Positions 1-18,959 of a DNA stretch of 20,304 nucleotides are shown here, in pieces (position 1 is the stretch's first letter; each line of letters starts with the position of its first letter). Below the pieces are notes generated by a model. It did no database searches. It had not been told where the DNA came from and saw only the letters and a list, made by a program, of their open reading frames with translations. Position numbers and translations under genes: made by a program. This stretch comes from a virus, in UHGV virus genome UHGV-0219734; one strand, written 5' to 3'.

Positions 1-2817
1 TTGCCATTCGCAGGATTAATCATCGCAATCCTGTCCGCCGCCAGCAGCACCTGACTCTGCATACCGTCAGGGGTATTCTCAATACCGGCACCAATACCCG
101 CGATATAAAGGCGTCCGTCCTGCATCTGCTGCAGCTTCACAGCCCACATGCTGTTCAGGTTATTATTTGTATCAACCTGAACCTTCTGTATCTGCTGAAT
201 TGCCGCACTCTGGTCTTCCAGTTTCTTATTGACGGTCTGCGTGATTTCATTGCTGACATCCGTAATGGACGTCCTGATTTCAGCCAGGTCAGGCGCAAGC
301 TGACCGTTATCAATCTGCGTCCACAGCTCCTGAGCCAGATGGCTTTTCCCTATCTCTCCTTTGAAAAAATCCAGATAGCCGGATGCATCATCACTCGGCT
401 GGCCAACAGCCTCCACAAATGCCGATTTGCCAACGGTGTTCACACTGCGGATGTAAAAATAATAATCATGGCCCGGTTTGATATTGATACTGGCGGCTAT
501 CCAGTACAGCGCCGTGCCAAGATAGCGGGCTGTGGTTTCAACCTGCCTGATATCGGTAATCCGCGTTTCCGAGAACCAGAACTCAAACTGTACCGTCGGA
601 TCATAAACCGCAAGATGCGGCGTGGCAGTTATCTGAAAATAGCCCGGCGTCAGCTCAATCCGCGACGGCGCTGCCGGTGCGGCAATCCGGAACGATACCG
701 ACGCCGGATCGCCCTGCTGCCCCCACGCATTTACTGCCCGGACTGTCAGCCTGTAGTTCCCCAGCGCCAGTTGCCTGAAGCGGTATGTGGTTTCCGTCGT
801 CCTGGCCGTGCTGACCAGCCGCTCACTGCCGTCGTCCGCTGCCACGGTCAGACGGAGCAGGAAGCTCACGCCCTTCACCACCTTCGGCGTGTCCCAGCGC
901 GCCAGCACCTGGTATTCCCCGCTGTCTGCGGTGACTTCGGCGGTCAGGTGCTGCACCGCTGGCGGCGTGACACCATTCACCGTGCCGCTCTGGTCGCCGT
1001 CAAAGTGCGCCCCGTTATCCACGATGGCCTCTTTTTCCGGTACATGCTGCACGGCGGTGATGGCATACGTGCCGTCGTCGTTCTCACGGATACTCACGCA
1101 GCGGAACAGGCGCTGGCGCAGCGTCGGCAGCTTCAGCCCCCACACGCTGTATTCAGCAACACCGTCAGGAACACGGCTCACTTTTACCTTCACGCCGTCG
1201 GTGACGGACTGAACCTCCACGCTGACCGGATTGCCACTTCCGTCAACCAGGCTTATCAGCGTGGTACCGGAGGATGGCAGCGTGATTTCACGGTCGAGCG
1301 TCAGCGTCCGGGTCTGGCTGTTCACCGCCAGCACACGACCACCGGTGCTGATACCGGCATAGTCATCATCACAGATTTCAATAACATCGCCCGGTACATG
1401 GCGAAGCCCTTCTGCGCCGACGCTGAAATCCACGGTCTGCGTTTCCAGCAGTTCTGTTTTAATCAGCCACAGCCCGGCGCGGTGTGCCTGCCCCCGACTG
1501 GTACAGCCAAAGGCATCCATCTTCGTGACGTTACGACCGTAACGGGCAATGGCCTGCGTGTCCTCCACAAGCTCTGTCGCCGTCTCCCAGCCGTTGTCCG
1601 GGTCAATCCAGTTCACCTCAACGGCATTATGGCGGTCCTTCAGGGCGCTGAAGCTGTAGCGGAACGGCGCGCCATCATCCGGCATCACCACATTACTGCG
1701 GTTATAGGTCCACACCTTATCCGACGGTCGGTCCTGCACGAACGTCAGCGTCTGCCCGTTCCATACCGGCATACAGCGCATCGCCGAGCAGAAATCACTG
1801 AGCACATCCCACGCCTTGCGCTGTGTGGTCAGGTACGCATTACAGGTGATGCGCGGCTCCGTGCCGCCAAAGCCGTCCGGCACTGACTGGTCGCAATTCT
1901 GGCCGATGACATACAGCGCCCATTTATCCACATCTGCCGCACCAAGACGTTTCCCCATGCCGTAGCGCGGGTGGGTCAGCATATCCCACAGACACCAGGC
2001 CATGTTGTTGCTGTATGCCGGTTTTAACGTTCCGTCCCAGATACCGCTGTATTGCCGCGTCTGCGGGTTATAATTCGACGGCACCTGCAGAATGCGCCCG
2101 CGAAGATGATAATTACGGCTCACCTGCTGGCTGCCGAACTGCTCCGAATCCACCTGCACGCCGACCAGTGCCGTGTTCGGGTAGCACTGTTTCACATCGA
2201 TGATTTCGGTGTATGACGACCAGAGCGTTTTGTTCTGCAGCTGGTCTGTGGTGCTGTCCGGCGTCATCCTGCGCATCCGGATATTAAACGGGCGCGGCGG
2301 CAGGTTATCCACCACCACCGAGGCCAGATACTGCGAGGTGGTTTTGCCCTTAATGGTGATGTCTTTTTCCGTCACCCAGCCACCGTTACGCTGTATCTGA
2401 ACCAGCAGGCGGACTTCCGACGGATTCCGGTCCCCCTTTGAAGTGGTTTCCACCAGTGCCTGCACACCGAAGGTAAAGCGCAGTCGGTCGATGTTTGCCG
2501 ACGTGATGGTGCGGGTGATCGGCGTGTCATATTTCACTTCCGTACCCAGCACCGTCTCGGAACCGGAGGATTCAAAGCCCTCCGGCGGTGTCTGCTCCTG
2601 CTCACCTGCCCGGAACACCACCGTGACGCCGGAGATATTGGTATTCCCCTCACTGTCCAGCACCGGCGTACTGTTCAGCAGCACGCTTTTTAACCCATCC
2701 ACCGGACCTTCAACCGGCCCTTCGCTGATGGCATCGATCACACTCAGCAACTGCGTGGACTTCAGGTTGTCCTTCGCTTCGCGCGGGGTATGCCCCTTAC
2801 TGCTACCTTTACCCATT
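1..2817 (-). CDS. J: Tail tip / central tail fibre protein J, N-terminal ~939 codons (3' end runs off the window start)
   Basis: Minus-strand ATG at 2815-2817 preceded by GGAG. Translation begins [13 protein letters not shown], and a spot-checked internal stretch (~1800-1890: [40 protein letters not shown]) matches lambda gpJ as I recall it. The ORF track reports no minus-strand ORF below 2883, consistent with one open frame leaving the window. The large plus-strand ORFs here are Arg-rich antisense artefacts. Confidence 0.9.
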
Positions 2818-2882: not shown

Positions 2883-3221
2883 TTATTTACATGCATTAAC
2901 ACTATCAGCAAAAATTTTTGGCGTTAATGCTGGTACGCGTTCATAAAGAGTAAAACTACTGCCATTTCCTGCTTTTTTGATATCAAGCACAACATCATAC
3001 CCACCCATAGCCTGTGGAACTAAAAGGCTTACCCCATTCTCAATAGGAATGGATGTTATAGGTGTTCCATTACCAGCCCATTGTCTGGATATGCAGCCTG
3101 ACAATTCATCAATATTTTTTAATGAATTACCTTCCATTACAGGCTTGCCGGATTTTACGTAATCCAAAGATTTACATCCTGTTAAGGCAATAATCGTGCA
3201 GAATAAAATCGTTTTGTTCAT
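2883..3221 (-). CDS. Moron-encoded small secreted lipoprotein of unknown function (112 aa from ATG; track ORF extends to a TTG at 3233)
   Basis: Translation MNKTILFCTIIALTG|CKSLDYVKSGKPV... has a hydrophobic signal peptide plus lipobox (L-T-G-C), Lys at +2, and two further Cys (SGCISRQ, NACK). AT-rich gene with AT-rich upstream region and terminator hairpin downstream. Sits between I and J, which are adjacent in lambda. No strong Shine-Dalgarno seen, so start is uncertain. Confidence 0.6.
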   Translation of the reverse strand: MNKTILFCTIIALTGCKSLDYVKSGKPVMEGNSLKNIDELSGCISRQWAGNGTPITSIPIENGVSLLVPQAMGGYDVVLDIKKAGNGSSFTLYERVPALTPKIFADSVNACK

Positions 3222-3293
3222 ATAGCTAACCAACAGAATAATTATCAGTGTTCGATATAAATATTAAATCAGTTAGAACATGAGTAAATAATA
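3222..3293 (-). promoter_or_regulatory. AT-rich putative promoter region of the lipoprotein moron
   Basis: About 70 bp of very AT-rich sequence between the I stop and the lipoprotein start, with several -10-like hexamers on the minus strand (e.g. GATAAT, TATTTA). Exact -35/-10 cannot be assigned by eye. Confidence 0.3.
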
Positions 3294-11220: not shown

Positions 11221-11496
11221 TTACTCAATAAAGATCATTGGCTTACCGTTAAAGCGTTCATGCCGTGTGACCGTCCATTGTTGTCCGTCATAAACAACGC
11301 GATCCCCGCGCCGTGGGCGGTATCCCGAAGAAAACACCACCAGAGAGACCGCAGGTCCGGACAGAGCATTCAGCTCTACCAGTGTTTCTCCCGGGATCAC
11401 AGTCATATCGACATCATTAATCGAGGCTGTCTTTCCCATCTTTCTGACCGTGATCGCATCCATACGCGCTGCCAGCCGGGAAAAGGGATCAGACAT
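11221..11496 (-). CDS. Head-tail joining / head completion protein, gpFII-like
   Basis: 91-aa ORF between the head genes and Z. C-terminal RRGDRVVYDGQQWTV resembles lambda gpFII RRGDTLTIGEENFWV as recalled. Shorter than lambda FII (117 aa). Confidence 0.65.
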   Translation of the reverse strand: MSDPFSRLAARMDAITVRKMGKTASINDVDMTVIPGETLVELNALSGPAVSLVVFSSGYRPRRGDRVVYDGQQWTVTRHERFNGKPMIFIE

Positions 11497-11898: not shown

Positions 11899-13857
11899 TT
11901 ACGCCGTACATTTCACCAGACCGCGGTGATCAACTGGCGCGACACCGGCGTCAATACGCACTTTCGTTGTCACGCCATCCACACTGAAGCCCTCCATCTG
12001 ATCAACATATGGCGTATCCACACCGTTGAGATAAGCCACTTCAATCGTATCGGAGCCTTTTGACGCAGCCAGGTAGAAGGTGGTCTGGCTGTTATCATCA
12101 AGACGAGGCTCTGCAATAACGGTCGCAAAATCTTTCACCGGGTTAATAATACCGGCGTTAATGTCAGCCCCCTTGACACTTGAGGAGCGAATGACCTGGT
12201 TAGCAACAGACTCCATCGCCGTCGGTACCAGTACGAACGCAGGACGAATATTCAGATGACGCTCCCCCTCTTTCTGAACACGCATCAACTGGCGGGCTTT
12301 ATCCAGCGATGCCACGTCCATTGCAGCGCTCTCCAGTACGTTTGCATGTTTCGCTTTATCGAACAGACTTACATTATCTGTGGAGATTTTCGGGTTAGAC
12401 GTCAGAATGGCATAAACCAGATCGGCAATAGTGGATTTCGCCGCACGGCCCAGCTTCATCGGGACATCGGTCAGCATATTCAGATCATCATTGATAATGG
12501 CCTGACGGGTGATACTGAACAGCTCGCCATAGGTCGCCAGTGCAATAGTGGCCTGTTTATCTCCGGTGGTGACGTATTTATATTCCGCCCCTTCACGCAC
12601 CTGGCGCAGAGCACTGAAGCCCCCCATACCCACACGATGGGCAATTTTAAAATCAGACAACTGACCTTTCCGCGTCCACTGTTCGTAAGTTTCAGGAGCA
12701 TCTTCCCAGCCCTGCAGAATGGCTTTGTTCGCAACATCCAACAAAATATTACCGAAGTCAGACGTACTGTGTGTGAACGCCGCACCAACCATCTGCATCG
12801 GATTATAACCGGAAACCCCAATACCCCGTTCAGTCAGTGACATACGGGCATATTCACGCAGGGTCATCCCGTTGTAGACATTATCACGTTCGGTTTTTTC
12901 AAATCCGGCACGCGCCATCAGCGCCTGGCGGATCCCGTCCCCCACAAAATTACCGTTACCGGCATAAATATGAGCCGGGGTATTTTTATTGGATGGCGTG
13001 GACTCGCGCCCCATCTCGTTCAACAGCTTTTCGCGGGCCTGCTCCAGCGAACATTCAGGATCGGCAAGACACTGAGCCTGCAGCGTCTGATAACGCCCGC
13101 CAAACATGGCAAACAGATCATTAATACCGTTTACACGCGCTTTTTGCTCTGCCAGTACCTGCGCACGGATACTGTTTTCATCCACCACGGGTGCTGCTGC
13201 CTGCACTGGCGTCCGGGAGGCTTCAGGTTCATTATCCTGTACGCGTGGAGCACTGTTGCGTGGCGGAGTAATCATGTTTCGAATGGATTCCGGCATCTTT
13301 TTAAATTCCTCTGTACGTTTTGACTGAATACATGCCATTGCCTTAACGGCTGGCGTTACCTGATCAGCAAATCCATGTGCCAGACATTCGGCACCGGACA
13401 TCCAGGTCTCATCCGCCAGCATGGCAGCAATTTCATCGGTGGTTTTCCCGGTTTTCTGTGCATAAGCGGGTAACAGAACCGCCTCAACTTTATCGAGCAG
13501 GTCGGCATAGGTGCGCATGTCCTCCGCATCACCGCCCGTAAAGCCAAATGGTTTATGAATCATCATGAAGGTGTTTTCCGGCATAATGACCGGGTTTCCC
13601 ACCATCGCAATGACCGACGCCATTGACGCCGCCACACCGTCGACATAAACGGTAATGGACGCACCATGTGTTTTCAGTGCATTAAAAATGGCGATGCCTT
13701 CAAAGACATCGCCACCCGGTGAATTGATATGGAGATTAATGTGGGTGATATCGCCCAGTGCACTCAGATCACTGATAAACTGCTTCGCTGTAACACCCCA
13801 GAAACCAATCTCGTCATAAATATAAATATCCGCGTCACTCTGGTGACCAGCCTGCAT
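11899..13857 (-). CDS. Prohead protease (ClpP-like, S14) / scaffold-like linker / major capsid protein fused in one ORF, ~652 aa
   Basis: From ATG 13855-13857 the N-terminal ~200 aa carry ClpP-like motifs (DIYIYDEIG, SPGGDVFEG, GVAASMASVI with Ser, MIHKP with His). A Pro/Gln/Glu-rich linker follows, then ~320 aa of capsid-like sequence ending ...VDGVTTKVRIDAGVAPVDHRGLVKCTA. One uninterrupted frame. The track's 87-aa N-terminal extension overlaps the portal 3' end, is Arg-rich, and is rejected. Confidence 0.8.
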   Translation of the reverse strand: MQAGHQSDADIYIYDEIGFWGVTAKQFISDLSALGDITHINLHINSPGGDVFEGIAIFNALKTHGASITVYVDGVAASMASVIAMVGNPVIMPENTFMMIHKPFGFTGGDAEDMRTYADLLDKVEAVLLPAYAQKTGKTTDEIAAMLADETWMSGAECLAHGFADQVTPAVKAMACIQSKRTEEFKKMPESIRNMITPPRNSAPRVQDNEPEASRTPVQAAAPVVDENSIRAQVLAEQKARVNGINDLFAMFGGRYQTLQAQCLADPECSLEQAREKLLNEMGRESTPSNKNTPAHIYAGNGNFVGDGIRQALMARAGFEKTERDNVYNGMTLREYARMSLTERGIGVSGYNPMQMVGAAFTHSTSDFGNILLDVANKAILQGWEDAPETYEQWTRKGQLSDFKIAHRVGMGGFSALRQVREGAEYKYVTTGDKQATIALATYGELFSITRQAIINDDLNMLTDVPMKLGRAAKSTIADLVYAILTSNPKISTDNVSLFDKAKHANVLESAAMDVASLDKARQLMRVQKEGERHLNIRPAFVLVPTAMESVANQVIRSSSVKGADINAGIINPVKDFATVIAEPRLDDNSQTTFYLAASKGSDTIEVAYLNGVDTPYVDQMEGFSVDGVTTKVRIDAGVAPVDHRGLVKCTA

Positions 13858-13870
13858 CCTGAACCAGGAA

Positions 13871-15379
13871 TTATTCTTCGGACTGGTCGTCGGTGTGCTG
13901 CGGCTCCTGTCGTTTCGTTGCGGCACTGCTGCCTCCTTTATCACTGGCCGGATCGGTATCAAATACCAGATCCAGCTTGCGGTTTTCATCAATTTCGGCC
14001 TTGCGCCGACGTTTGACATCATCCGGATTACGACCACCTGCACGTACCCAGTCTGATTCTGTCGCCGCTCCACCACGAATCTGAATTTTCCAGGCCTCAG
14101 CCTCCTTAACAGGGTCAATCCACGGCATCACCGGTCCGGAATACACCGCGGTATACAGTGAAGAACGGTCAAGATCGCGGGGTAGCCTGATAACACCGGA
14201 TGCCACAGCCTGTTTCAGCCAGGCACGATACATCGGGCGGGTGACGGCACCAATAAACCAGTCCTGCAGGATCAGGTAGCCATCAGTAGACTCAACCAGT
14301 TCCTGACGCTGGGCGCTGTAAGTGCCGTTATAGTTGCGTGCTGTACTGGAAAAACTCAGACGACTGCCCGCCGCCACGGCACGCAACTGACCATTACGAA
14401 AAGTTTCAAGGTTAGGATTGGGGCGATCCGACTTCACCATTCCGATTTCTTCGCCGGGTTTCAGATCGTCGTAAATAATGCCTGGCTGAATGGTAAGCTC
14501 GCGTTCATTCTCCTTGCAGCCATTACCATCCGGTTCATAGCTCTGTCCGTCGCCTTTCCGGATGTACATCCCCAGAGCAGCGGCGATCCTTGCTGCAGTC
14601 AGCTCAGAATCTTCATACTCTTTCAGGGCACTGAGGCGGATCAGTACACCGGACAATAAAGACGTCCCGCGCATCTGGTGCAGACGGCGAACAAATTTAA
14701 GATGCAGCATTCGCTCTGCATCCACTTCTTTGGTTTCCATCTGCCGTCCGGATACAGGACGGCTTTTATACACCAGATATTTTTCGGGACGCCCCCAGTC
14801 ATCAACAAACACGCCCTGATTCAGCCTGTTGCTCTCATCACTGGTCATGGGAATAAAGTCCGGCTCGAGCGCCTCCAGCCAGAAATGAACACCGGCAGAA
14901 GGCGTCAGGCTGTTTATGCGCCCGGAAACCATCTGGGCAAACACCTCACCATCGCGCAGCCAGGTACGCAGCATCAGACGTTCCAGCATCGGGCGGGTAA
15001 ACTGCCCGGTGACTTCCGGACTGACAGACCATTCACTCCATCGGGTGCGTATCTCCGCTGCCAGGTCACGGGCAATGGCCCCATTGCGTAATACCGGATG
15101 TGGCTCGACAATAATCCCGTTTTTCCCCACCACCCGTTCTTCCAGCTTGTCAAATACACCAATAACCAGATCGTGGTTGTTATCAAGGTAACGGGCCTGC
15201 TCACGTAACGACACGGCCCCGTACTGGCTTAACTGGTCGGCAGTTCGGTTTTCCCGCCGGGCTTTGTGTGTCCGCGTCGTTTTTACGGCCTCATAAGCCT
15301 GGATCACCGCACGGGAACGCAGCCTTGCCGCTTTCCATCCTGGTGAAAAAACGCCAATCACATCATCAAGAATAGCCAT
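13871..15379 (-). CDS. Portal protein (lambda gpB family)
   Basis: 502 aa from ATG 15377-15379 (MAILDDVIGVFSPGWK...); this ATG overlaps the gpW stop (ATGA). Size and position match lambda-family portals. The track start (GTG 15451) would overlap W and is rejected. Confidence 0.85.
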   Translation of the reverse strand: MAILDDVIGVFSPGWKAARLRSRAVIQAYEAVKTTRTHKARRENRTADQLSQYGAVSLREQARYLDNNHDLVIGVFDKLEERVVGKNGIIVEPHPVLRNGAIARDLAAEIRTRWSEWSVSPEVTGQFTRPMLERLMLRTWLRDGEVFAQMVSGRINSLTPSAGVHFWLEALEPDFIPMTSDESNRLNQGVFVDDWGRPEKYLVYKSRPVSGRQMETKEVDAERMLHLKFVRRLHQMRGTSLLSGVLIRLSALKEYEDSELTAARIAAALGMYIRKGDGQSYEPDGNGCKENERELTIQPGIIYDDLKPGEEIGMVKSDRPNPNLETFRNGQLRAVAAGSRLSFSSTARNYNGTYSAQRQELVESTDGYLILQDWFIGAVTRPMYRAWLKQAVASGVIRLPRDLDRSSLYTAVYSGPVMPWIDPVKEAEAWKIQIRGGAATESDWVRAGGRNPDDVKRRRKAEIDENRKLDLVFDTDPASDKGGSSAATKRQEPQHTDDQSEE

Positions 15380-15597
15380 CAGAACCTCGCCAGCCGGTAC
15401 CCGGGATGCCCCCGTCGTCGTGTAATCAGAGCCGCAAGGCGGCGCTCCCACTCCTGCCGTCCCTGCCGGATCTCAGATAAGTTTTCCATGGTCATCTGCT
15501 GACCATTAAAGGTGACGGATTTTCCGTCCAGCACCGCCATTTCAGCTTCCGTATAACGCTGAATCATGGCTTCGATATCATTCTGGTTCATAACCAT
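15379..15597 (-). CDS. W: Head-tail joining protein gpW-like
   Basis: About 70-aa ORF between terminase large subunit and portal. C-terminus ...ITRRRGHPGYRLARF resembles lambda gpW ...QRRRGPAGFYV as recalled. An alternative start at the third codon (ATG 15589-15591) overlaps the terminase stop (ATGA). Confidence 0.7.
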   Translation of the reverse strand: MVMNQNDIEAMIQRYTEAEMAVLDGKSVTFNGQQMTMENLSEIRQGRQEWERRLAALITRRRGHPGYRLARF

Positions 15598-17690
15598 CCT
15601 CCGGAAGTCAGCCAGGGGTTAACATCGTCAGTTACTGTTTTCTTCCGTTTTTGTTTTTTAACAGGCGTGGATACCGGTTCCGGTGAGGGTGACGGTTCGG
15701 TACTGTCCGGGACACACTCCAGCCAGGTTTCCCGGCTCGCCCACTCCGGTGTATCCGGCCAGCGGATCTTTTCGTATCCATGCAGAATGACCAGAGCCTC
15801 GGCATACACCATCAGGTCAAAAGCTTCGTTGGCACCGCGACCCGGCTTACTCCATTTCCCGTCACTGCTCCGCTCTTCATACGTCAGTTCGTCGTAAAAC
15901 CAGCTCCCCAGCCAGTCAGGGAAATGCACATAGCCGGGACCTGGAGAGTCACGCCATAACGCGTTATTCACCCGGTCTTTCAGGGCATCCGTCTGAAGAA
16001 GCCAGAGCGGCACATCACCTGCGGCCTGCGCCCGTCGGCCCGTTCGTCCGGTGTTATCAGGGAATGTACGGGTGATCAGTTTTGCGCGCCGGATGCTGTC
16101 GCCCTTAAACAGGTAAATACGTTTACCAAGGCCATCACGACGGCAACGACGCCAGAATTTATAGGCATTATCAGTGACCCCGTCTTCACCGCCGGAGTCC
16201 ACCGCCATTGCCATCAGTCGCATTTGTTGAGAAGGATCGGAGGCCAGCGGCCAGCTTTTATGAAAAACATCCGTCAGCAGGACATCCCAGTCTTCCGGAT
16301 AGCTGGCCGGATCAATTCGCTGGCTCTCCCCGTCGCTGTCACCGCGCAATGACTGCGTGATGTTGTAACGATCAATAATCCAGCGTTCGCCACGGCTGCC
16401 ATAGCCCGTTACCTGAACCACAAAACGGCGATGACGTCCCGCCTGCACATCCACTGTCGCCACAAGGAAATTAACGCCATCCGGCACACTGCGGGAAGGA
16501 ACTGGCTCTGCCCGCTGCTCAAGCAGTTCACTTTTTCGTTGCTCCATGCTGGCACGGGGAAGATAAGGTAATCCCCAGTCGGTATTGATAACCGTCTTGA
16601 GTGTTTCTTCACTTCCGGTTGTCTCGTATTCCTGTTCTGCAGTAAGCAGTTTGTAAACGAGTTGCGAGAGTGTCTGGTAAGCAGCTGCCGGACCCTCCAT
16701 CCAGAATGACGCAATACGTGAGCGTCGGGGATCACCATAACGACTGCCATCCGCATTGATGGATTCACCATCCCGCAACCAGACCCCACGTCCGTTCAGC
16801 TCACGTTTTTGTTCAGGCATAATCCGTCCTGAACAGGAAGGACACTGAATATAAGCCGCCTCACTTGCCAGCACGGGATCGGCAATATCACGGAAACCAG
16901 CAACCACATCGCCGCAGGGCTGAAAATACTCACCACAGTGTGGACAGGGCCAGTACCAGCGACGGCGATCACCACGGTTATAGAGCGACAGTATCCCCGT
17001 GGTTGGTGGAGCCTCATGCGGTGAAGTCCGTCGCCATTTCACATCCTTCACATCCCTGCCGGGGGAACTCTCCACCAGCGTCATACCACTGGACATAAAT
17101 GTGGTGGTACGTTTTGAGGCAAGAGAGAAAGCATCCCCCTCGCCATCAATATCTTCCGGAAAACGGTCATAATCCGTCAGCGCGACGCATTTATAATCTG
17201 ATGAGGACATGATATTGACTGACGGCCAGCCGATTTTCAGGTAGTTACCAGCAAGGAATGTTCTGTCATAAACGTTGTTGTCATTTTTGTTCGGACTCAG
17301 GCGACTGACCACTTCCGGGCTGACGCGAAACGTTCTGGCGAGTCGTTTTTTGGAGTGTTCGCGGGCTTTTTCCTCCGTCATCTGAATGATCAGCATATCA
17401 GCAGGATCGCAAATCACGTTGTAAATCACCCAGCCGTCAATCAGGCCGATAGTCTTGCCGGTTCGTGCCGGGCCAACAAATATCACTGCGTCGTATTCAC
17501 GCGAGGCCAGGCAGTTCATCGGCTCAATAACATACGGTGCCACCAGCGGATCCCACGGGACTGAGTTCCCTGCCCCCATGGGCACCCGCATATACTGAGC
17601 AACGGCATCAGCAACCCGCATTCGCCTCGGTGCGCGAAGGATATAACCTGAATCGGTTCGTGCTGCCTTTGCGGTTTCCTGATTCAGCAT
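15588..17690 (-). CDS. Terminase large subunit (GpA family)
   Basis: 700 aa. Walker A-like GPARTGKT; Cys/His cluster WYWPCPHCGEYFQ paralleling lambda gpA ACPHCGEEQY as recalled. ATG overlaps the small-subunit stop (TAATG). Confidence 0.9.
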   Translation of the reverse strand: MLNQETAKAARTDSGYILRAPRRMRVADAVAQYMRVPMGAGNSVPWDPLVAPYVIEPMNCLASREYDAVIFVGPARTGKTIGLIDGWVIYNVICDPADMLIIQMTEEKAREHSKKRLARTFRVSPEVVSRLSPNKNDNNVYDRTFLAGNYLKIGWPSVNIMSSSDYKCVALTDYDRFPEDIDGEGDAFSLASKRTTTFMSSGMTLVESSPGRDVKDVKWRRTSPHEAPPTTGILSLYNRGDRRRWYWPCPHCGEYFQPCGDVVAGFRDIADPVLASEAAYIQCPSCSGRIMPEQKRELNGRGVWLRDGESINADGSRYGDPRRSRIASFWMEGPAAAYQTLSQLVYKLLTAEQEYETTGSEETLKTVINTDWGLPYLPRASMEQRKSELLEQRAEPVPSRSVPDGVNFLVATVDVQAGRHRRFVVQVTGYGSRGERWIIDRYNITQSLRGDSDGESQRIDPASYPEDWDVLLTDVFHKSWPLASDPSQQMRLMAMAVDSGGEDGVTDNAYKFWRRCRRDGLGKRIYLFKGDSIRRAKLITRTFPDNTGRTGRRAQAAGDVPLWLLQTDALKDRVNNALWRDSPGPGYVHFPDWLGSWFYDELTYEERSSDGKWSKPGRGANEAFDLMVYAEALVILHGYEKIRWPDTPEWASRETWLECVPDSTEPSPSPEPVSTPVKKQKRKKTVTDDVNPWLTSGGWL

Positions 17691-18184
17691 TACTCCTCCT
17701 GCTGTAATTCCTCCTCATCATCCGCACCTGCTTCGGTCACCCGCAGGGCTATCTGATCGCGCAGATCATCAATAATGGACTGAACACGGCTCACAGCGGC
17801 AGGCTGCAGACCGCAGTCACGTTCCAGAATATCCGGTAATGTCTCCAGCACCTGCACGACCGCTTTTGCCCAGATGGCAAACTCCCGTCTGACATCACTG
17901 GCCGGAATGAGTTGCGCCGTTTCCTGTTCGAACTTAAGACGCTCACGTTCAGACTGATACCAGGCTTTGCGCTCATGCGCGTCCATTTCGCCTTCTGCAA
18001 CCGGCGGTGGTAATGCCAGAAATGCCGACACAATATCAACCACCCGATAAAGCTTGAGGTTGCTTTCATGCCCCCCTGCAACGGGTAGATTTTGCAGCCT
18101 TGCCGCAGCAGTCTGGCGATGTACACCTGACAGTGCCGCCAGTTGACTGATATTCAGCGTCAGATTTTTTAACTCTCGATCCAT
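17690..18184 (-). CDS. Terminase small subunit (Nu1-like DNA-packaging protein)
   Basis: 164 aa. N-terminal helix-turn-helix-like segment LNISQLAALSGVHRQTAAARL, acidic C-terminus (DDEEELQQEE). Immediately upstream of and overlapping the large terminase; first gene downstream of the cos site. Confidence 0.75.
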   Translation of the reverse strand: MDRELKNLTLNISQLAALSGVHRQTAAARLQNLPVAGGHESNLKLYRVVDIVSAFLALPPPVAEGEMDAHERKAWYQSERERLKFEQETAQLIPASDVRREFAIWAKAVVQVLETLPDILERDCGLQPAAVSRVQSIIDDLRDQIALRVTEAGADDEEELQQEE

Positions 18185-18376
18185 ACCCGCTCCAGAATGT
18201 TTTAAACATGCATCTTGCGAACAACTTTAGGCAAACGGTGTTAGTGATGAACAAAAAACAATCAAAATCGACACCATAAAAATAAAACTAATGTAATATC
18301 AATGCATTACAGTAGTGGTGATGACGAATGAAATTTCAAAAACTAGCCTTTTCCCGCGACGCTCCCGCCCCGTGGC
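18185..18376 (-). other. cos site: cosN (about 18353-18376) plus cosB (18185-18352)
   Basis: Minus strand reads CCACG-GGGCGGGAGCGT-CGCGGG-AAAAGG..., against lambda ACG-GGGCGGCGACCT-CGCGGG-TTTTCG as recalled. Further in, ATTCGTCATCAC echoes lambda CTTCGTCATAAC. AT-rich stretch with repeated TCATCAC motif before the small terminase start. Predicted 12-nt cohesive end is minus-strand GGGCGGGAGCGT (plus 18359-18370). Confidence 0.6.
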
Positions 18377-18763
18377 AGGCCACCCCACCGGGAGGACCCG
18401 TCAGCCTGACAGCCATGACGAACGTCTGATACAGCGCCCTGCATGAATGGCATCGGGATAATCCAGAAAGGAATAGCATCGTGCCCACAAGAATCTGTGT
18501 GAGTGTCCTGTTTCTTCCACCCCCGCACAGGACTGGCGAGCATGAGGGACAAACCCGCGAACCATAAACGCGGTAAAAACCCGGTGTGCATCGTTTTTGA
18601 TTATTCCCGCACACTCGCGCAGAAGGAGTTCCCCGTCGGGCTACGGTCTCTGTTAATACGGGAATACGGCGACGATACAGCGCATGATGTGTCAGGCTTG
18701 AATACCTTTATCCGTTAAAAGGGATATCAGTTAAGTTATCCCGTGTAGGGTATAAGCCATTAC

Positions 18764-18785
18764 AAAAGCCCCGCGAATGCGAGGC
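18764..18785 (-). terminator. Terminator-like hairpin downstream of the lysis cassette
   Basis: Minus-strand RNA 5'-GCCUCGC-AUUC-GCGGGGC-3' (7-bp stem including one G-U) followed by UUUUG. Flanked by a 9-bp inverted repeat cattacaaa / tttgtaatg (about 18758-18766 and 18798-18806). Confidence 0.4.
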
Positions 18786-18959
18786 TAAATCCTGGTATTT
18801 GTAATGACTGGCTCTTATCCCAACGCAGCCCCTTACCGCGCGCAAGATGCTCAATATCAAGCATCAGCAATGAGATATTTAATCTGGATTCACTCCAGAA
18901 GTGATCACCACCCTGTCTACAGAGCCAGATGTGAAGGATGATGAGTAAAATTATCGCTA

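Follow-up and report, generated by a model that had tools for sequence, protein, structure and literature searches.

In phage HK97, a scaffold 'delta domain' is covalently attached to the N-terminus of the capsid protein gp5 and is removed by the phage protease. The Gifsy-2 shell was reportedly modelled with HK97 gp5 and lambda gpD by Effantin and colleagues in 2010. According to papers that cite the Gifsy-2 work, this phage has a 'tripartite capsid gene' encoding a fused prohead protease and coat protein, its shell is T=7, and trimeric decoration is present at the 3-fold axes. The protease and middle domain of Gifsy-2 are reported to be removed by proteolysis. Evseev et al. (2021, PMC8508860) read gp5 of Pseudomonas phage MD8 as a single gene for protease, scaffold and MCP.

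In this study, a 20,304-nt stretch of viral DNA (UHGV virus genome UHGV-0219734, hereafter the window) was analysed. The head gene of this lambda-like E. coli prophage encodes a capsid-maturation protease, an assembly scaffold and the major capsid protein in one polypeptide. This architecture is already known, experimentally from Gifsy-2 (Effantin et al., Virology 2010, 402:355), from MD8 (2021) and from the protein's own NCBI naming model, NF045540. The first-pass annotation of this DNA had called the architecture notable rather than novel, and these precedents bear that judgement out. The discovery value is small, as nothing departs from the described systems. The additions made here are limited to the assignment of the start site, the Glu at the third catalytic position and the predicted domain boundaries. 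The genes and signals around the fusion are as follows.

13871..15379, minus strand: lambda-family portal gene (PF05136, 1.4e-81), whose 3' end overlaps the start of the fusion gene
11899..13926, minus strand: fusion gene, 675 codons and stop, placed by the ORF, the start-site evidence, the RefSeq annotation and the NF045540 score
11862..11875, minus strand: terminator-like hairpin and T-run directly after the fusion stop codon
11489..11812, minus strand: DUF2190 / Phage_cement_2 gene, 107 aa, predicted decoration (cement) protein (PF09956, 9e-21)

The late operon of this lambdoid prophage lies on the minus strand throughout. Its order is lysis genes, small terminase (DUF1441), large terminase, a 72-aa W-like gene, the lambda-family portal, the fusion gene and DUF2190/Phage_cement_2, followed by Z, U, V, G, T, tape measure, M, L, K, I and J. 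No separate capsid, scaffold or protease gene was found in the late operon. The order portal-fusion-DUF2190 is shared with Gifsy-2, Fels-1, F10, PSTCR8lys, mEp213, mEp460 and 1720a-02. At the position of the terminator-like hairpin, the mEp460 and mEp213 records show a rho-independent terminator.

The Gifsy-2 gene (STM1033 region) is 70% identical over the full length and has the same three-part order. The neighbours are also the same, with an overlapping lambda-type portal upstream and DUF2190 downstream, then the Z/U/V/G/T tail genes. As in Gifsy-2, there is one ORF in the order protease, middle segment and capsid, similar over its whole length and placed in the same neighbourhood without a separate capsid or scaffold gene. 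The two differ in host and by a 30% divergence concentrated in the N-terminal extension and the tether; nothing differs in kind. The fusion gene is an ortholog of the Gifsy-2 tripartite capsid gene. The gp5 proteins of MD8 and F10 are 57% identical over the full length and differ in a longer Pro/Ala-rich tether and another N-terminal extension. The genes of mEp460, cdtI, Ayreon, Tritos and phi458 (NF045540) show no difference in kind; only their public names and start codon disagree.

The comparison with lambda has two sides. The family profile aligns with lambda gpC across both the S49 protease part and the Nu3 scaffold part, and the portal belongs to the same family and overlaps the next gene in both phages. 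However, the lambda capsid protein E is encoded by a separate gene and Nu3 is started internally within C, whereas in the window a capsid protein of Mu gpT type is fused in frame. The contrast that had been drawn at the outset with the separate C / Nu3 / D / E genes of lambda holds in this respect. The decoration protein of lambda comes from a gpD-family gene before the capsid gene, and that of the window from a DUF2190 gene after it. By analogy, the fusion would work as a protease-scaffold of lambda C/Nu3 type with a Mu-type capsid protein attached in frame. The likeness to HK97 lies in a scaffold covalently attached N-terminal to an HK97-fold capsid protein. The HK97 protease gp4 is encoded by a separate gene and belongs to family S78, whereas the ClpP-type protease of the window is fused as well. 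Dulem virus 34 is intermediate: its S78 protease has a gene of its own, next comes a 513-aa gene for scaffold plus capsid, and then DUF2190. In the record of this gut virus, which has a tail sheath gene, the S78-type protease is mis-annotated as 'major capsid protein' (L009, 2763..4877).

Reading frame, distribution and start codon

Translation of 11899..13857 on the minus strand gave 652 aa and a stop, with zero internal stops. This confirms the single ORF of ~652 aa, without a stop between the domains, of the first-pass annotation, which had left the strand unstated. The reading frame is open upstream of ATG 13857 as far as 14118. GTG 13926 lies in frame 69 nt upstream of that ATG and adds 23 residues, giving a product of 675 aa with a computed mass of 73.5 kDa. 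Residues are numbered here on the 675-aa form, which equals the earlier 652-aa numbering plus 23.

The same DNA, identical or near-identical, was found in 2,125 of the 5,426 complete E. coli genomes, and query coverage was at least 80% in 1,974. About a third of complete E. coli genomes carry the fusion. Prophages in two complete E. coli genomes have 100% identical DNA, and the protein is 100% identical to RefSeq WP_077820881.1. Identity to phages mEp460, cdtI, Ayreon, Tritos and phi458 is 98-99% at the DNA level. By tblastn, the full-length fusion was present in 74 phage records (Escherichia, Salmonella, Klebsiella, Providencia and Pseudomonas), with protein identities such as the following.

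Stx-converting phages: 76-77%
mEp213 / LLS: 74%
Fels-1: 72%
Gifsy-2: 70% (70.1%, query residues 1-651, tblastn)
Providencia PSTCR8lys: 64%
Pseudomonas F10 / MD8: 57%, full length

When one protein per 50%-identity cluster was taken, 126 of the 128 matches of 630-760 aa among the best 150 had both domains in one chain. The fusion protein matches phrog_133 end to end. It scores 986 bits against NF045540 (cutoff 475, E 1e-296), with residues 9-651 of the 652-aa form aligned to positions 2-651 of the 652 in the profile. It is a member of this NCBIfam family, 'ClpP-like prohead protease/major capsid protein fusion protein', and the RefSeq name on the identical sequence is the same. The protease-scaffold-capsid arrangement is under long-term conservation. 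A large proportion of the prophages of E. coli, Salmonella, Klebsiella and Pseudomonas carry the fusion, Shiga-toxin and cdt-converting phages among them.

The first-pass annotation had itself raised the caveat that a stop lost or a frameshift introduced in sequencing or assembly might have joined separate protease and capsid genes. No support for such an artefact was found. The same uninterrupted frame is present in the 1,974 of 5,426 complete genomes with at least 80% coverage, the fusion is carried by 74 independently sequenced phages and by 126 divergent sequences from the 50%-identity clusters, and a curated full-length HMM exists in NF045540. Because the fusion is conserved across genomes, we regard it as real, and the comparative evidence leaves an artefact with practically no probability; a sequencing-derived fusion can be taken as excluded.

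The 5' end of the gene was then assigned with the following two features.

13932..13938, minus strand: Shine-Dalgarno AAGGAGG, 5 nt before GTG 13926 and within the portal gene 3' end
13858..13926, minus strand: N-terminal 23 residues, basic, Ser/Thr/Pro/Arg-rich and predicted disordered, with an SWF motif at the end

The motif before GTG 13926 is a perfect AAGGAGG, and ATG 13857 has no Shine-Dalgarno match of at least 4 nt. The same GTG and Shine-Dalgarno sequence are kept in mEp213 and 1720a-02. ATG 13857 is codon 24 of the 675-aa form; the equivalent codon is ATC or ATT in Gifsy-2, Fels-1 and Pseudomonas F10, and a conserved SW[F/Y] motif stands before it. In the alignment of 127 sequences (126 diverse representatives and the window protein), position 24 is Ile in 52, Leu in 23 and Met in 15. 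With distant homologs, the alignment often begins at query residues 16-21. Residues 1-20 have an AlphaFold2 pLDDT below 50. The RefSeq annotation of identical DNA gives the 675-aa form, and the mEp460 record gives the 652-aa form. GTG 13926 is favoured because AAGGAGG lies upstream of it, because the GTG and its Shine-Dalgarno sequence are kept in relatives, and because the codon at ATG 13857 is not conserved. On this strongly supporting comparison, translation most likely starts at GTG 13926, and the first 56 nt of the fusion gene overlap the portal gene, whose stop codon is at 13871-13873.

A small hairpin across ATG 13857 (13857-13869) was also considered but dropped for want of conservation in mEp213. 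GenBank phage records start the fusion gene at three or more different codons and give it names such as 'head-tail preconnector protease C', 'Nu3', 'scaffold protein', 'major head protein', 'terminase protein' and 'Clp protease'. The practical value of the assignment lies here: public names and start codons disagree, and the comparative evidence favours the GTG that overlaps the portal gene.

Domains of the fusion protein

In the 652-aa product, Pfam CLP_protease matched residues 23-168 (E 3.9e-36) and Phage_capsid_4 matched residues 354-649 (E 2.4e-54), with a weaker Mu gpT match nested in the latter region. The ClpP-like N-terminal protease and the capsid-like C-terminal part of the first-pass annotation agree with these matches, and the domain-boundary check by Pfam gives the layout protease, then capsid. 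AlphaFold2 with 97 diverse homologs gave a mean pLDDT of 78.3, with folded modules between low-confidence stretches at 1-20, 220-247 and 309-324. A model from a shallow alignment (22 sequences, 75-96% identity) had been unusable at pLDDT 34 and was redone with the 97 homologs. The parts of the protein are listed below.

13270..13866, minus strand: ClpP-fold prohead serine protease domain, residues 21-219
13624-13626, minus strand: putative catalytic Ser101, aligned to the ClpP Ser
13555-13557, minus strand: putative catalytic His124, aligned to the ClpP His
13408-13410, minus strand: putative catalytic Glu173, aligned to the ClpP Asp
13180..13269, minus strand: Pro/Ala-rich disordered tether, residues 220-249 (AlphaFold2 pLDDT below 50 at 220-247; variable)
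13003..13179, minus strand: conserved three-helix scaffold-like core, residues 250-308 (AlphaFold2 and lambda gpC alignment)
12955..13002, minus strand: second disordered variable stretch, residues 309-324 (AlphaFold2 pLDDT below 50; indels at 316-321)
11902..12954, minus strand: major capsid protein, residues 325-675, HK97 fold, Mu gpT type

The N-terminal domain matches ClpP / peptidase S14 (PF00574) in sequence and in fold, and a PDB search with the whole protein or a whole-length profile returned ClpP alone. Its AASMAS and MIHKP motifs align to the ClpP active-site motifs. Of the 127 homologs in the divergent alignment, 126 retain Ser101 and 126 retain His124, so the catalytic Ser and His predicted earlier are near-invariant. 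Position 173 is Glu in 108 and Asp in 12, thus acidic in 120 of 127; ClpP has Asp there. The domain is predicted from these residues (Ser101, His124 and Glu173) to be catalytically equipped. A double-heptamer chamber of the ClpP kind, acting with a Clp ATPase, would not be expected of a protease tethered to the capsid. One may ask whether it is instead catalytically dead and a mere extra scaffold, with another protease of the host or the phage doing the processing. The Glu in place of the Asp of ClpP at the third triad position would fit such a view. Against it stand the near-invariance of Ser101 and His124 and the acidic residue at 173 in divergent homologs, the alignment of both motifs to the ClpP active site, and a terminase-to-tail interval without any other head protease gene. 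A dead protease is thus very improbable and is effectively excluded.

Between protease and capsid, the linker of the first-pass annotation is present. It is not a single Pro/Gln/Glu-rich linker but consists of three parts, the tether (220-249), the helical segment (250-308) and the disordered stretch (309-324). Column entropy peaks in the tether, where 89 of 97 homologs have insertions, the longest of 39 residues. AlphaFold2 predicts helices at 250-273, 280-288 and 294-307 with pLDDT 73-87. With hhalign, the family profile aligned to lambda gpC (window residues 59-351 to C 122-434, probability 87%, E 4e-6), a moderate similarity, with a score that takes the protease and Nu3 parts as one. No Pfam family matches the middle segment. 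The match to NF045541, the second fusion family, is confined to residues 200-649 of the 652-aa form and, at 401.7 bits, lies below the cutoff of 525. Dulem virus 34 has a stand-alone capsid protein of 513 aa, to which window residues 232-672 are homologous (27% identity, E 2e-35). Because the Dulem virus 34 and NF045541 matches span the middle segment and the capsid, the middle segment appears to travel with the capsid domain and to behave like a covalently attached scaffold. The protease modules in front of it belong to different families. Residues 309-324 are the likely candidate for the maturation cleavage zone.

The C-terminal module is of Mu gpT type (PF25209 / PF10124), as both an HMM match and similarity to solved HK97-fold capsid proteins are present. 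The capsid structures in the PDB were reached only with a profile of the C-terminal part alone. The nearest solved relatives are the capsid proteins of JBD30 (PDB 8rkc) and Mu (9jod), which have the canonical HK97 fold (profile E 5e-12). These are stand-alone proteins of ~300 aa, with scaffold and protease encoded separately. Residues from ~384 onward correspond to the entire JBD30/Mu capsid protein, and the fusion protein has ~60 extra residues (325-383, three predicted helices) before the equivalent of its N-terminus. No detectable similarity was found between the capsid part and lambda gpE.

Proposed maturation of the polyprotein

We believe, with a probability of roughly 85%, that this gene alone encodes the head shell of a Gifsy-2/mEp460-type lambdoid prophage and that its product is a four-part polyprotein processed to the capsid protein; the cleavage positions, the timing and the stoichiometry are those that we infer. 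The 73.5-kDa polyprotein would be translated from GTG 13926 and comprise the protease, the flexible tether, the Nu3-like helical scaffold and the HK97-fold capsid protein. The capsid domains would form a T=7 procapsid on the portal, and the N-terminal 300-odd residues (protease and scaffold) would face its interior. Each subunit would thus contribute a scaffold and a protease of its own. Within the closed shell and at high concentration, the proteases would cut the disordered stretches, most likely at ~309-324 and probably in the tether too. The internal material would be digested and the fragments would leave, so that a capsid protein of roughly 39 kDa remains. The shell would then expand during DNA packaging, and trimers of the DUF2190 decoration protein would cement it. 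A rough estimate is that 415 subunits, all with the N-terminal part, place ~14 MDa inside the shell, or 34-52% of the interior volume at an inner radius of 20-23 nm. Such packing of ~415 N-terminal parts is dense but feasible. The cleavage position and the protease load of the ~415 shell subunits are of moderate interest to capsid-assembly specialists.

The gene might instead give two products, a minor full-length polyprotein and a more abundant scaffold-capsid protein without the protease (465 aa, 50.7 kDa), started internally at Met211; the majority of shell subunits would then lack a protease.

13294..13296, minus strand: in-frame ATG of Met211, hypothetical candidate internal start (ATG 13296)

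Met211 coincides with the boundary between protease and tether. Seven enterobacterial and Pseudomonas relatives (down to 57% identity) all have it, each with GAGGA or CAGGA ~10 nt upstream and an A/T-rich spacer, and it is also invariant in 22 closer relatives. A second product would ease the dense packing of 415 protease domains, and lambda offers a precedent in Nu3, which is started inside gene C. However, the weak Shine-Dalgarno-like motif stands at a long spacing and is accounted for by conserved Glu-Glu-Phe codons. The wider family has Ala (33), Val (24), Pro (14), Thr, Ile and others at position 211, while Pro212 is kept in 120 of 127; as the position varies and its neighbour is conserved, Met211 is not characteristic of the family. 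In the alignment with lambda, the Nu3 start falls near residue 144 instead, where no start is conserved. No other internal start with a Shine-Dalgarno match of at least 4 nt lies near the capsid N-terminus. Thus, a lambda-type internal in-frame start yielding a separate scaffold was not found in the fusion gene, where the sole candidate, Met211, is clade-specific with a weak Shine-Dalgarno sequence. We consider the two-product scheme unlikely and prefer the single polyprotein. If Met211 were used, the ratio of starts at GTG 13926 and ATG 13296 would set the protease dose per procapsid, and the enterobacterial/Pseudomonas clade would show a mirror image of the lambda C/Nu3 nesting. The other internal starts with a Shine-Dalgarno match of at least 4 nt were rejected, M137 for its 3-nt spacing and lack of conservation, M536 and V649 for their place deep in the capsid domain.

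Other features of the late operon

The decoration protein (DUF2190) has no sequence relative in the PDB. After its gene lies a 91-aa gene (11221..11496, minus strand), which matches PF13856 'Gifsy-2' ('ATP-binding sugar transporter from pro-phage') and is named 'DNA breaking-rejoining protein' in RefSeq. Its location, with head genes on one side and tail genes on the other, points to a head-tail joining protein, and both public names look like misnomers.

The large terminase gene (15588..17690, minus strand) is an intact 700-aa ORF with GpA_ATPase and GpA_nuclease. Its counterpart in a prophage of E. coli GU2018_CL13 (NZ_AP029000) carries the annotation of a frameshifted pseudogene; that prophage is 99.98% identical, with 3 mismatches and a single gap against the window in 17.4 kb. 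No gene is annotated in the ~640 bp (~18184..18822) that separate the small terminase gene from the lysis genes. A cos site is expected in this interval; the lambda/mEp213-type pattern GGGCGGCGNNCT is absent upstream of terS. Among the lysis genes, a truncated Rz is annotated in a near-identical genome.

Two further ORFs lie in the tail region. The 116-aa ORF at 2883..3233 (minus strand), between the tail assembly gene I and the tip gene J, matches no Pfam family and is a hypothetical protein in RefSeq. The 515-aa ORF at 339..1886 (plus strand) runs antisense to the gpJ tail-tip gene in a GC-rich stretch, has only a sub-threshold Pfam match and is most likely spurious.
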